Shown one piece after another: positions 3,001 to 12,560 of a stretch of DNA of 64,000 bases (its first letter is position 1; each line of letters starts with the position of its first letter). The notes under the pieces are model-generated. The model had not been told where the DNA came from and did not search any database. It saw nothing but the letters and a program-made list of their open reading frames with translations. The DNA is from Dissostichus eleginoides. Taxonomy: Eukaryota. The position numbers and the translations under genes are program-made. Where the stretch lies: assembly GCA_031216635.1 (NCBI GenBank), contig CM062276.1:7363185-7427184 (forward strand), given 5' to 3'.

Positions 3001-6000
3001 TCTCACTTGTTCTATTGGCAGACTTTTGTACTTATTTCAAGTGAAAACACCTTGTTTTCATTATTGTTTAACTTGTTTTTGGAGCAGCATTTTTTCCAGT
3101 GCAGAGAGTGAATTGCTGATAAATACTTACAAATTAAACATTGACAATTCTTACAAACCTGTTTGTGACTGGGCTGGCTCTCTTCATTGTCCAACATCTC
3201 CTCACTGTCAGAGCCGGATTCCTTCTCCTGCAGATTGAGCAAGTTTAGTCGATATAATATATAACTCAATATAAACAATGGTAGTATTAGTGCGATTGTA
3301 ACCAGCATCACATCGTATGGGGATTATTGAAATTAAAAACAGATGTATATTATTTTAAGCTTTAACCCTTATGTTGTGTTCAGGTCTCCCCCGTGACCCA
3401 TTTCAAGTTCAAATTATATAATAACTACGCTCTAGTTTTTTTTTATCGGAACAAGGCTTCATGATATCCTCCACAACAGCTATATAAACACTACAAAGAA
3501 CCTACAAGATTTTGACATTTTTGCCACGTCTGAAGGTCTCAACAAAAAAAGTGTATAATTTGGTGTTGGGGTCTGGGAAGACCCATCCCCAGGAAGTGCG
3601 CCGGACTCTGAGGAAAATATTTGTTGTGGCCAAACGGCAGTACTACACTTCCGTATCAGTCGCTGGGCCCGGAAATACTTTTTCCCATTGGCTTACATTG
3701 GGAAAGAGACGTCTGTAAATCGTTGGATAATTTTTTTCAAACTAAATAAACTACCCAGTATGAACATTTGTATAGCCCTTATTAAAAACATTCGGTCCTC
3801 AAGTTGTAAAATGTGCCAATAACGTTATTCTGAGAGTTCTTTTCCTCAGCATTATGAACGCGGATCTAACCCACGGGAACGCGCCGACCGGCACGTTCAT
3901 GTGACGTGTTCAGTACTACATGAGTTTTACCTTTACCCATGGATGCACAATAAGAACGGATTATATGATTATATGAATACTTTCGTGACGTTTCGCGCCC
4001 TCAAAAGTTGGGCCATTTTGTCTTCATGCGCCAATGAGCAACTCTCATAGGAATGAACGAGGCCCCGCCTCCCACGCTGTATCCAGTTCTTATTATACAT
4101 CCATGGGGAGACCCAGCAGAATTGTTTTGGGTGACTCGAGGTCAAATTTGGCCCAATCAAGATTCATCTTTGACTTTAGACACCCCTCCCCCACCCCCTT
4201 CATCCACTGTAACAATAATTTTTCGCAACATGCACCTGGTCTCCCCTCCCTCTGCCCCCCCTCCCCCCACAGGAACTCGACCTTTCTCAAAGAATATGTA
4301 CACATTTGAACCTGAACACACAAATGCACGTGTGCAATATGTGGTGTAATTTGTTTTGGGGCCATAACATTAAATTACAACAGGATTGTACGGTTATGAA
4401 TGCATTATAAGTTAGTTATGATAGTTAAAACAATATTGGATGATAGTCATTTTTTTTGTGTGTTTTGGACTGAAATAAATCATGGGTCAAAATTGACCCG
4501 CGAGCACCATGAACGGTAACAGCTTTCGAACACAACACAAGGGTTAATGAATGAGATGCTTTTAGTTTGGGGAAGTGTGATAGGAAAGATGAACTGATGA
4601 TGTGCAGAGTAAAGTAACCACTCCTTACCTGTTTGTCAGTGGAGAACGTGCTGTTCATCATCGCACTGAAACCGCTCTGAAATAAGAGAAAGACACCTTA
4701 CCAGACCAAAGCCATCATCTTCATCTTAATGTCATAGATAAAAAATATCAAAAAACTGCGCCAATTGCAATATTCCAAAATAGGTCACTCCGTAAGAACC
4801 CACCTGCTTGGCTTTAGGTTTCTCTGCAGTAGATGTATTCTCATTTGAGTCTCCTGAGTGCTCAGTCTTTTCCTTATCCTGTCAGAACACAATGCACATT
4901 ACCACGTCATTAAACTCAAAACATGGCCGAGTGTATGACGGACTGATAGTTATATGTCTGATGAAGGATTAAGTGTGAGATGAAATGACCTGAGCTGAGG
5001 AGGTGAAAGGATTCTTCAGGATCTTTGCTGCAGCTCCACCCTGACAGACAATTCAAAGCAGCTAAAGTTGAAACCTCATATCGCTCACTGTGTATTCTGT
5101 TAAGTGCAAGTTGATCTCTTACCTTTGAAGGCTTCTCTATGAGGCTGTCACTACTGGCAGAGAGTTCACTATCCACGGTCAAATCCTCCTGAACAGAGGG
5201 ATGAAGCATACAGTCAGAATGTAACAACCAAGATGTCCAATGTACTCAAGTGTTTGACTTCAAAGTGAAATATCCACCGTGTAACTAAACGACTGCAAAA
5301 TATTCCCCAAATTGAATATTTTTTGGATTGAAAAACCTTTTTATTGACAAACTTGACTTTTCTTACCTTAGACTGAGATCTGGCAACTTTCTTTCTGAAC
5401 ACTCCACTGAAGATTCCTCCTTTCTCCTGAAGAAAGAATAAAGACAACATTCAATATGACGACATTTGTTGTTATTTTTCTTTCTTGCAGTGACTGTTTT
5501 TAACAAAGCTCACCTTAGTGTTCTCTGAAAGATTGTCGTTGCTTCCCGAGAGCTCGCTGGGTTCAGACAAATCATCCTGAAGGCAAGAAACACATGTTAA
5601 TAAATCTATATTAAACCTGTTCTTATGATTTATAGTAACATGGTGTTTCAGCGAATAAGCTCCAGTAATACTCTCACCTGAGATGGTGTCCTCTCTCCTA
5701 AGGGCTTTGGTGGTTTTTTAAACATCCCGGTAAACTTCCCACCTGTCTCCTGGAGTAAAAAGGTAAAATGAAAATGGTTCAAACGTTGGCCATCATGAAA
5801 AAAAGCATTCATCTGGTTTCTCAAAGCTCACCTTAGTGTTGCTGTTCACACACAGACTGTCTTTGCTGCCTGAGAGCTCGCTGGTTGCAGACAAATCCTC
5901 CTGAGAAGAAATATCATTACCAATTATTATTATCTCCAAAGAATGTACCTTAGCTGTAAATAGGACAAGTGAGATGCTCACCTCAGATTGTGTCCTCGAC

Positions 6001-12000: not shown

Positions 12001-12560
12001 AGCCTACATTCCCACACGGCTGTTTGCATAGCCTACTCATGGACTGCACTGCGTGGACAGTTTCAGTCACACAGATAGAGGTCAGGTCGATAAAATCAAC
12101 TAAAACATGGCTGTTGACTCTCACAACTAATATAACAACTCAGCTAAACTTAAAAGACAAAAGTTAGCAAGCTAAAGCACTACATTAAAAAAAACAAACA
12201 TCAAACGTGACTCACAGCTACGCCTCCTCCCCCTTCACACTCCAGATCCAGGTCGAGGTTATCGTATCGATCCTGTCAAACAGCAGAGACATGTCCAACG
12301 GTTATTCAAACCTAACGTCACATTAACGGATATTTTCAACAGTTTGCCGGGAGAAACTTGACGGAAAGACGGACTTTAACCGCTTTTAAAAGAAGAGTTT
12401 AAACGTTAACTCACCATTGAAGCTGCTCCAACTCTGCCTTTGTTTTCCCGGTGGTTTATCGATGTTGGTATTGATTTAAATGATTCAGTCCTCGGCCACA
12501 GTTAGCTGGTGCTGCCCGTCCCCGCGTTGATTCTGTCGGCTGTTTTCACTCAGCCGCTTT
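1..12560 (-). CDS. Multi-exon protein-coding gene, identity not recognised, partial (3' part lies beyond window start). It encodes a low-complexity, probably intrinsically disordered protein built mostly from alternating acidic Ser-rich and basic GGxFxGMFKK-PKP exons.
   Basis: I found 28 candidate exons on the minus strand, all bounded by AG acceptors and GT donors, all multiples of 3 nt (phase 0-0), and all in one continuous reading frame. Approximate exons, 5' to 3': 12416-12560, 12216-12272, 11010-11081, 10774-10839, 10576-10644, 10079-10150, 9906-9977, 9733-9795, 8846-8902, 8643-8705, 8037-8102, 7873-7941, 7716-7787, 7569-7637, 6895-6966, 6735-6803, 5982-6053, 5832-5900, 5678-5749, 5516-5578, 5367-5426, 5123-5188, 4990-5040, 4804-4878, 4629-4676, 3159-3227, 2307-2378, 226-273. 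Six-frame ORF fragments (for example 6736..7101, 7887..8186 and 9705..9965) contain the exon peptides. Confidence 0.65.
226..3227 (-). CDS. Three downstream exons of the same gene encoding acidic Ser/Glu/Asp-rich peptides (EKESGSDSEEMLDNEESQPSHKQ, NEKQSSSDEEDPPASSEKSSGHKQ, EMKRTSIYDEGNEDDQ). The gene continues past position 1.
   Basis: Exons lie at about 3159-3227, 2307-2378 and 226-273. Each has an AG acceptor and a CAG|gt donor, is phase 0, and is in frame with the array. Confidence 0.5.
436..482. repeat. (CA)n microsatellite.
   Basis: Direct reading. Confidence 0.9.
612..722. repeat. (TG)n microsatellite of about 55 units.
   Basis: Direct reading. Track ORFs 417..731 and 552..734 are artifacts of this tract. 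Confidence 0.95.
4629..11081 (-). CDS. Tandem array of 22 symmetric exons, about 11 acidic/basic pairs, with a period of roughly 300-350 bp.
   Basis: Acidic exons encode EDLSAPSELSGSKDNLSVNSNTK (63-69 nt) and end AAG|gtgag. Basic exons encode E(T/K)GGVFSGMFKKxPKPxxARTESQ (57-72 nt) and end CAG|gtga. Three acidic exons (6735-6803, 7569-7637, 7873-7941) are nucleotide-identical, including roughly 20 nt of flanking intron. Confidence 0.7.
7005..7485. mobile_element. Non-autonomous DNA transposon (MITE) of about 480 bp with TIRs CAGGGTTCATAC...GTAAGAACCCTG and a 6-bp TSD AACATG, inserted in an intron of the repeat gene.
   Basis: The TIRs read directly. AACATG is duplicated at 6999-7004 and 7486-7491. 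A second copy lies at 44463-44948. Confidence 0.75.
9002..9704. mobile_element. TTAA-flanked MITE of about 703 bp with perfect 19-bp TIRs AGGTCCCATGTCATGG..., which suggests a piggyBac-like or other TTAA-specific superfamily. It lies in an intron of the repeat gene.
   Basis: The left end reads ttaa|aggtcccatgtcatggcc and the right end reads gcatgacatgggacct|ttaa. Internally it has a (CA)n tract and a CCAAT-bearing palindromic duplicate at 9380-9475. Confidence 0.7.
12416..12560 (-). CDS. Exon 1 of the repeat gene. It is 5'UTR plus the initiator ATG, which is immediately followed by a GTGAGT donor (ATG|gtgagt); the 5' boundary is not determined.
   Basis: The minus strand reads ...ggagcagcttcaATGgtgagttaacg. 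There is no upstream ATG in the preceding roughly 140 nt. The next exon (12216-12272, DRYDNLDLDLECEGGGGVA) starts in phase 0 after a tttgacag acceptor. Confidence 0.45.

Follow-up and report, generated by a model that had tools for sequence, protein, structure and literature searches.

A Dissostichus eleginoides apolipoprotein L gene with a long array of alternating basic and acidic exons

We analysed a stretch of 64,000 nucleotides of the Dissostichus eleginoides genome (assembly GCA_031216635.1, contig CM062276.1, positions 7,363,185 to 7,427,184; hereafter the window), one end of which is occupied by an array of small coding exons on the minus strand. Scanning this strand for open segments bounded by AG and GT, followed by assembly by hand, allowed 32 consecutive coding exons to be rebuilt from the sequence, running from position 12417 down to 226. 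All 32 have a length divisible by three, are in phase 0 and carry a polypyrimidine/AG acceptor and a GT donor. By sequence comparison we identify window positions 1-12417 (minus strand) as the first 32 coding exons of the D. eleginoides orthologue of the teleost gene called "apolipoprotein L1", of the ApoL/APOLD1 family. The gene already has a database entry and a name, and the array is the annotated front two-thirds of its product. Of the 32 exon peptides, 29 recur unchanged in the deposited protein "Apolipoprotein L6 [Dissostichus eleginoides]" (P0002), where 24 exon junctions are contiguous, and the peptides of exons 23 and 27 are found exactly in a second model of the same species (P0003). 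The locus of this second model (L002, GCA_025770515.1) is 98.6% identical to window positions 665-14419.

The gene opens with an exon whose coding part is a lone ATG (12415-12417, the last 3 nt of exon 1); the sequence reads ...cttcaATG followed directly by gtgagt, and the 5' untranslated region extends upstream. The deposited gene model at L002 starts at the equivalent base, in agreement with an earlier note on this DNA, made from the letters alone, that had called an ATG/GT first exon. Exon 2 (DRYDNLDLDLECEGGGGVA, 12216-12272), with a net charge of -5, is matched exactly in both P0002 and P0003. Exons 3 to 22 (11081-5123) then form 10 canonical pairs of one basic and one acidic exon, each exon of 57-72 nt. 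The basic exons of these pairs (57-72 nt) encode E-x-G-G-Phi-F-x-G-M-F-K-K, and the acidic exons (63-72 nt) the Ser-rich EDLSxxSELSGSxDNLS. The consensus of the module can be written E-x-G-G-Phi-F-x-G-Phi-F-K-K-x-x-K-P ... S-Q for the basic exon and [ED]-D-L-S-x-x-S-E-L-S-x-S-x-D-x-L-S ... K for the acidic one.

The first of these exons were delimited as splice-bounded open segments and by comparison with P0002: basic exons 3 (EKAALFGGMFKKSLNSSEPSLKAQ, 11010-11081), 5 (EKGGVFKGMFKKTNKAAKEEQPQ, 10576-10644), 9 (EKSGVFGGILKRHARRPSQ, 8846-8902) and 11 (ETGGVFSGMFKKAPKPSAAQSQ, 8037-8102), and acidic exons 4 (DSLSVSSELSKSDESLTDSSTK, 10774-10839), 6 (VSLSVQNPELSVSSDSLTDNKPSK, 10079-10150), 8 (DLLEDKFAAIDDSLSEKTTAK, 9733-9795) and 10 (DLLDNEFTASTDSLSENTTTQ, 8643-8705). 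Basic exon 7 (EKSGVFGGKLKRSPKPGHVRRPSQ, 9906-9977) ends, in the orthologue alignment, with a nearly invariant RRPSQ. There follow acidic exon 12 (EDLSASSELSGSKDNLSVNSNTK, 7873-7941), basic exon 13 (ESGGMFSGMFKKPPKPSGAKTQSQ, 7716-7787), which by isoform mapping begins a cassette block of exons 13-18, acidic exon 14 (EDLSAPSELSGSKDNLSVNSNTK, 7569-7637), basic exon 15 (ETGGVFSGMFKKTPKPPAARTESQ, 6895-6966, a splice-bounded open segment) and acidic exon 16 (6735-6803), whose peptide is that of exon 14. Basic exons 17 (EAGGMFSGMFRKSPKPFGSRTQSE, 5982-6053) and 19 (ETGGKFTGMFKKPPKPLGERTPSQ, 5678-5749) are further supported by orthologue alignment, and acidic exon 18 (EDLSATSELSGSKDSLCVNSNTK, 5832-5900), like exons 12, 14 and 16, by exon alignment. 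Splice-bounded open segments complete the canonical array with acidic exon 20 (DDLSEPSELSGSNDNLSENTK, 5514-5576), basic exon 21 (EKGGIFSGVFRKKVARSQSK, 5367-5426) and acidic exon 22 (EDLTVDSELSASSDSLIEKPSK, 5123-5188), the last of these pairs.

Downstream, the basic partners give way to hydrophobic or basic exons of smaller size, for example GGAAAKILKNPFTSSAQ and SKFAGAMEKLNPFRSANK, and NPF motifs occur in two of them. Exon 23 (GGAAAKILKNPFTSSAQ, 4990-5040) is an NPF-bearing cassette, exact in P0003 and skipped in P0002, and exon 27 (SKFAGAMEKLNPFRSANK, 2494-2547) is another, also exact in P0003. Exon 25 (SGFSAMMNSTFSTDKQ, 4629-4676) is a degenerate hydrophobic partner, and exons 29 (AGVMSKLNIFRSTHN, 1379-1423) and 31 (VKSNMIQRERKERIETPTVPPRPSKE, 355-432) are further cassettes, the three being supported by isoform mapping; exon 31 has a PxxP motif, and its PPRP stretch weakly matches the Pfam p47phox_C model. 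Between them lie acidic exons 24 (DKEKTEHSGDSNENTSTAEKPKAKQ, 4804-4878), 26 (EKESGSDSEEMLDNEESQPSHKQ, 3159-3227), 28 (NEKQSSSDEEDPPASSEKSSGHKQ, 2307-2378) and 32 (EMKRTSIYDEGNEDDQ, 226-273), called from open segments and P0002, and exon 30 (KNTEEDTQENEKPGEEKPKP, 767-826), recovered in a transcript contig that reads into the next intron. At the very edge of the window, positions 1-7 (cag/GACAACA, reading D-N-) probably begin one more cassette exon, cut by the edge; the Trematomus isoform P0004 continues ...DDQ-DNKDMISRS. The gene itself extends past window coordinate 1.

Net exon charge thus alternates between negative and positive all the way from exon 2 to exon 32, with exon 25 at zero, giving about 15 pairs overall. 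The small symmetric phase-0 exons of 57-72 nt, alternately acidic and basic, that the earlier note described are borne out by exons 3-22. Its estimate of about 11 pairs falls between the 10 canonical ones and the roughly 15 obtained when the downstream alternation is counted, its span of about 6.5 kb has to be reduced to about 6.0 kb for the canonical array, and the purely acidic exons it placed after the array do not hold, the charge alternating to the end. The conceptual product of the 32 exons has 671 amino acids (aa), with 16.5% Ser, 11.8% Lys, 10% Glu and 70% disorder-promoting residues. Tandem Repeats Finder, run on window positions 1-20000, did not detect the array, since its units of about 316 nt are too diverged in their introns and too broken by insertions. 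A tblastn search of the window with two paralogue proteins (P0122 and P0129) gave no match beyond 12.6 kb.

Searched against protein databases, the 671-aa peptide gave 252 matches, and the best 120 listed are all from teleosts, mostly 900-1160 aa long and with notothenioids at the top; 115 of these 120 carry an Apolipoprotein L domain (PF05461) at their C-terminus. The orthologues come from about 100 teleosts. Most are named "apolipoprotein L1" at NCBI, alongside many spurious low-complexity names, and the "apolipoprotein L1" of the teleost gene comes from automated annotation. The ApoL family has been argued to derive from an APOLD1-like ancestor, with APOL1 being primate-specific, in a study that does not treat the long fish forms (PMC8557400). 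In P0002 the domain scores 127.5 bits at residues 792-1046, and in P0001 128.3 bits, against a Pfam gathering score of 25.9. It lies outside the window: residues 786-1102 of P0002 are encoded by one large terminal exon (L002:23386-24336), about 9 kb past the left edge (coordinate 1). Hydropathy in the ApoL part peaks at 2.13 at residues 845-868 and rises again near residue 990, in a region modelled as helical with low confidence, consistent with the predicted hydrophobic helical hairpin typical of membrane insertion in this family. The repeat peptide itself, in contrast, belongs to no Pfam family. A scan of the 671-aa peptide at E <= 1 gave only two unrelated matches below threshold (PHAX_RNA-bd, 19.1 bits; p47_phox_C, 14.4 bits), and a PDB sequence search with P0002 found no relative. 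The database comparison proposed in the earlier note therefore places the gene among the teleost ApoL-family proteins: its statement that neither the gene nor the repeat matched a nameable family stands for the repeat and fails for the gene.

The joining of these exons by splicing is supported in several ways. The deposited models P0002 and P0003 connect the array exons to the ApoL exon, and a 992-aa product including PF05461 (P0074) is encoded on a contig of 4159 nt, too short to hold the introns, so that array and ApoL part are joined in a spliced product. An RNA-derived contig of 1747 nt from the Logan assembly of SRR28040489 (L001) has a continuous 517-aa open reading frame (ORF) that passes through the junctions given above, beginning in exon 2 and reaching exon 30, and then enters a retained intron; the closest relatives of this ORF among the matches are from Chaetodon and Pagrus, at 78% identity. 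Mapping 12 notothenioid protein models on the exons indicated that each window exon occurs in one model or more, that exons 13-18 are skipped as a block and that exons 23, 25, 27, 29 and 31 are skipped singly in annotated isoforms. As all exons are phase 0-0, single exons or pairs can be dropped in frame.

To follow the module across species, a profile (A1) built from 39 basic-plus-acidic units was searched against 1.84 billion representative proteins, yielding 101 proteins at E <= 0.001. The source is named for 30 of these, 28 being teleosts and two nematode, with no non-teleost vertebrate among the 30. Among the teleost matches, Elopomorpha (Gymnothorax, Aldrovandia), Clupeiformes, a catfish, salmonids, smelt, gadiforms and percomorphs are all represented. 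The two nematode proteins, from Bursaphelenchus (P0146 and P0172), were rejected as homologues, their repeat being a different one with a chance GMFKRTP resemblance; they have 18 near-perfect copies of a repeat of about 70 aa containing IGKIVGMFKRTPAHEDYP.

The matches fall into two paralogous groups, both with array and ApoL domain. Proteins of the window type start with MDRYD, are about 1000-1130 aa long and also occur in Clupeiformes and Elopomorpha. Those of the longer group, annotated as apold1a or si:rp71-1g18.13, have 1300-1700 aa and start with MEQC. They share the two-exon basic-plus-acidic module in front of the ApoL domain but are paralogues rather than orthologues of the window gene, with a proline- and lysine-rich head and an extra charged C-terminal tail, long and rich in Lys, Glu and Arg. 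P0002 and the apold1a-type protein of a sole (P0122) are 41% identical over about 500 aa of the array and 42% in the ApoL domain. In the paralogue of a moray eel (L005), 72-nt exons encoding EKGGMFSGMFKK...Q alternate with acidic exons of 63-69 nt ending in K, all in phase 0. Because these exon boundaries are the same in the apold1a paralogue and in eels, the module predates both the teleost radiation and the split of the paralogues and is at least as old as crown teleosts. Two consecutively numbered apold1a-type genes of Gymnothorax javanicus (GJAV_G00090710 and GJAV_G00090720; P0080 and P0125) both carry the array, pointing to a tandem duplication within this lineage.

The history of the individual exons proved to differ between the two halves of the module. 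The acidic exons 14 and 16 are the only identical pair (69 of 69 nt); exon 12 matches them at 66 of 69 nt, with 3 differences, and exon 18 has 5 differences. When paralogous units are aligned, exons are 80-95% identical and introns 47-59%, and the splice flanks of the acidic copies share only a minimal cag/G and AAG/gt core. Two of the three acidic exons reported as nucleotide-identical in the earlier note are therefore so, whereas the third is not and the claimed identity of the flanking splice signals does not extend into the introns. We compared these exons with the loci of two icefish, Champsocephalus gunnari (L003) and Chaenocephalus aceratus (L004). Acidic paralogues of one genome have a synonymous difference of 0.087-0.128, acidic orthologues one of 0.165-0.172; basic exons present the opposite picture, with 0.26-0.30 between paralogues versus 0.11 between orthologues. 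Additionally, a synonymous G at position 30 is common to all three C. gunnari acidic paralogues and absent elsewhere. These comparisons lend modest support to concerted evolution of the acidic exons only, a process that the earlier note had offered as an alternative to duplication. The identity of exons 14 and 16 would be best explained by short-tract gene conversion among the closely similar acidic exons plus strong purifying selection on the peptide.

Purifying selection could also have acted alone, on the peptide and on the exonic splicing enhancers of exons of 57-72 nt, with no conversion at all. The acidic peptide is nearly unchanged in distant percomorphs, Plectropomus (P0011) having an identical EDLSAPSELSGSKDNLSVNSNTK, and tiny exons generally depend on exonic enhancers. 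Against this, the synonymous difference of orthologous acidic exons is about that of neutral sequence (introns differ by 8-13%), while paralogues within one genome differ less and C. gunnari has its own synonymous change in all three copies. We therefore regard selection without conversion as doubtful.

What the array does in the protein can be approached through its predicted structure and its motifs. In an AlphaFold2 run of P0002 with 41 orthologues, residues 1-735 have no helix or strand and a predicted local distance difference test score (pLDDT) of 30-46, helices appearing only from residue 737. Hydropathy over 19 residues reaches at most 0.40 in residues 1-735 versus 2.13 in the ApoL part; with no hydrophobic segment in the former, no signal peptide is present, and the array would most likely be a cytosolic disordered tail. 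The long disordered repeat polypeptide of alternating charge anticipated in the earlier note is thus upheld by the model, by the composition and by the exact matches to P0002. Within the unit, profile A1 indicates conservation of G4, F6, G8, K15, S36 and L40. An alignment of 42 orthologues shows no variation at two NPF tripeptides, N658-P659-F660 and N707-P708-F709, and hardly any at a third, in exon 27, or at the RRPSQ that closes exon 7; acanthomorph orthologues have 3-7 NPF each versus about 0.1 expected from composition. R-R-x-S is a classical PKA-type kinase consensus and NPF a classical EH-domain ligand. The conserved NPF motifs sit in a stretch free of predicted structure and signal peptide, as the sequence of a candidate EH ligand should. 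Readings of the motifs as WH2 (LKKT), FG-nucleoporin or clathrin-box elements were dropped, the flanking features they require being absent.

In this context, we tentatively put forward that the array may act as a cytosolic, alternatively spliced tail, open to regulation by phosphorylation, in front of the membrane-inserting ApoL domain. Splicing would set the number of motif copies; the Ser-rich acidic halves and the RRPS sites would be phosphorylated; acidic membranes or proteins of the trafficking system could be bound by the aromatic-basic halves and by the NPF exons, and the motifs might thereby hold the ApoL hairpin at endocytic or secretory membranes or regulate it there. Such a motif-bearing regulated tail is a possible function, not yet a probable one.

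Known systems offer partial parallels. Like other members of the ApoL family, including APOLD1 (PF05461), the product ends in a typical domain of helices and a Gly/Ala-rich hydrophobic hairpin and, as in the intracellular members, has no signal peptide; its N-terminal array of about 670 aa, matched by nothing in Pfam, sets it apart. TCOF1 (treacle) and NOLC1 (Nopp140) are long disordered proteins with repeated small exons and alternating acidic Ser-rich stretches (of the casein-kinase type) and basic stretches. The earlier note had likened the array to them in architecture and not in sequence, and rightly so, for no Treacle or SRP40 Pfam match to the 671-aa peptide was found even at E <= 1; moreover, the unit here is two exons, and it is joined to a membrane-inserting ApoL domain, where those proteins have nucleolar targeting elements. 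Proteins of the epsin, stonin and Rab11-FIP2 class likewise have several conserved NPF motifs in a disordered region, as here, where two lie in exons 23 and 27, but the NPFs of the window gene are in cassette exons and no ENTH/ANTH or other endocytic domain accompanies them. The Phe/Lys-rich FSGMFKK next to phosphorylatable serines resembles the effector segments of MARCKS and AKAP12 type, from which the window exons differ in a net charge of only +2 to +6, in being Gly-rich and in lacking a myristoylation signal and detectable homology.

Alternatively, the array might be a blocky polyampholyte, a spacer or condensate-forming scaffold in which charge pattern and length matter, tuned by exon skipping, and specific motifs do not. 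The alternation of net charge over 31 exons (exon 25 being zero), the predicted disorder and the variation in length, through cassette exons and between species, would all suit such a role. The conservation of G4, F6, G8, K15, S36 and L40, of RRPSQ and of NPF over hundreds of millions of years is nevertheless more than a pure charge-pattern function would require, and we consider this alternative unlikely.

The earlier note saw in the identical acidic exons a very recent tandem duplication of exon pairs, that is, young copies that have yet to diverge. The perfect match of exons 14 and 16, the near match of exon 12 and a copy number that differs between notothenioid lineages, with four EDLSA-type pairs in the window gene versus three in icefish, could be so read. 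Yet the introns that flank and separate the copies retain only the low identity given above, and the two basic exons on either side of exon 14, exons 13 and 15, show 9 mismatches in 72 nt. For basic exons 17 and 19 there is an unambiguous one-to-one orthologue in both icefish loci (1-2 nt apart for exon 17), orthologues differing by 1-8 nt and paralogues by 9-19 nt, and exons 13, 15, 17 and 19 all match repeats one to one in a Gymnodraco protein. Furthermore, the icefish loci, which have one pair fewer, carry a single exon in place of exons 13-15, with an exon-13-like 5' part and an exon-15-like 3' part. Such a chimeric exon is the signature of unequal recombination, by which copy number changes here. 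Because Dissostichus has exons 13 and 15 and Gymnodraco the matching repeats, the icefish state is most simply a loss and not a gain in Dissostichus; exon-pair number thus does vary among relatives, as a comparison suggested in the earlier note might reveal, but not by recent growth of the array. Given intron identity of about 50%, the one-to-one icefish orthologues and the presence of the module in eels and in the paralogue, we reject a recent duplication as very improbable. The point at which the chimeric exon (L003:5867-5938, L004:5133-5204) changes from exon-13-like to exon-15-like sequence is not the same in both icefish, which hints at further conversion after the deletion.

That the exons are non-functional repeats or a transposon-derived pseudogene mistaken for exons can be dismissed outright, since the repetitive appearance and the transposon-like insertions in several introns are outweighed by 32 open phase-0 exons with consensus splice sites, exact matches in deposited proteins, a spliced transcript contig and conservation of the module across teleosts.

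The identity of the gene and its evolutionary account, taken together, are in our judgement highly probable, and the explanation as a whole, comprising an ApoL-family gene, an old module, conversion and the proposed function, is the best available and likely to be right, its functional part being no more than possible. Several points weigh against it. Only 8-15 synonymous differences per class underlie the evidence for conversion, to which selection acting on splicing signals within such tiny exons could contribute. Isoform use in D. eleginoides is predicted mostly from automated gene models plus one transcript contig from a relative. The AlphaFold model is of low confidence (predicted template modelling score 0.29), supporting disorder only through the structure it fails to predict. 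For the aromatic-basic motif, membrane binding is proposed by analogy with the MARCKS effector domain. Lastly, the eel apold1a-type proteins lack NPF motifs altogether, so that binding of EH domains cannot be the ancestral role of the array and NPF is a later addition. A further-reaching reading is possible rather than probable: the 47-residue two-exon unit (GG-Phi-F-x-G-Phi-F-KK...KP / EDLS..SELS.S.D.LS) would be an undescribed teleost-specific module, placed before ApoL proteins ahead of the radiation, which forms a phosphorylation-switched array for binding membranes or partners, its valency set by splicing and its acidic half kept uniform by conversion limited to the exons.

Several introns of the gene contain insertions. 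The 602-nt intron 14/15 holds a dispersed repeat of about 480 nt (6999-7481), whose L002 counterpart matches window positions 44462-44949 at 96%; given this second copy, it is probably a transposon insertion. In the 681-nt intron 16/17, the segment 6112-6703 is absent from both icefish loci and looks like an insertion specific to the Dissostichus lineage. A segment of intron 8/9 (8998-9715) contains inverted repeats (gtccgcggattggtcca.../...tggaccaatccacggac) along with a 17-nt tandem repeat (9418-9452); in icefish the corresponding sequence is inverted and sits at another place in the gene, suggestive of a mobile element. An inverted copy (95%) of window 4790-5064, covering exons 23-24 and their intron, is found at L002:14484-14761, in the next intron downstream just past window coordinate 1, and a weaker one (80%) of the exon 23-24 segment in icefish L004. 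Intron 30/31 has long (AC)n and (TG)n microsatellites at 442-492 and 613-723, the second with 55 perfect repeats.

Elsewhere in the window, an ORF at 19900-20313 (minus strand) has sub-threshold matches to WD40 beta-propellers (best E = 5e-9) and is probably an exon of a neighbouring WD-repeat gene. On the plus strand, an ORF at 59815-60207 starts with MSDTTDLL..., contains PPPY motifs and ends in ...FDDKIVRRAFVRKV; Pfam gave no match, and we take it to resemble the N terminus of a TMBIM/GRINA-type protein. A 205-aa ORF at 48582-49199 (plus strand) begins with MGTRASR..., a possible N-myristoylation start, and is rich in Ser, Asp and Glu, with no Pfam match. Positions 22001-24000 are the strongest compositional outlier of the window (GC skew +0.33, G+C 0.32).

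Concerning the array as such, we found no paper on the module in the literature on apold1a, rp71-1g18.13, teleost apolipoprotein L or its disorder, and, as it seems, the long disordered array at the N terminus of these teleost proteins is undescribed. The zebrafish apol1 knock-down papers (PMC4492502, PMC4854397) work with a 2.6-kb locus and NP_001025309.1 and do not mention an N-terminal array. A search seeded with a shad protein brought no cyprinid among its matches. Zebrafish apol1 is used, with this short gene model, as a model for human APOL1 kidney disease; if the array should be present there, loss-of-function and rescue experiments would have missed two-thirds of the protein.

As a result of genome scanning the finding is an ordinary one: the array belongs to a deposited, named gene, and its "identical copies" mark no new or recent event. 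What retains interest is an old, undescribed disordered module with a mixed mode of evolution. Its conservation since before the split of eels and percomorphs implies a function, and the locus may serve as a compact natural example in which acidic exons evolve concertedly while the adjacent basic exons of the same repeat diverge.

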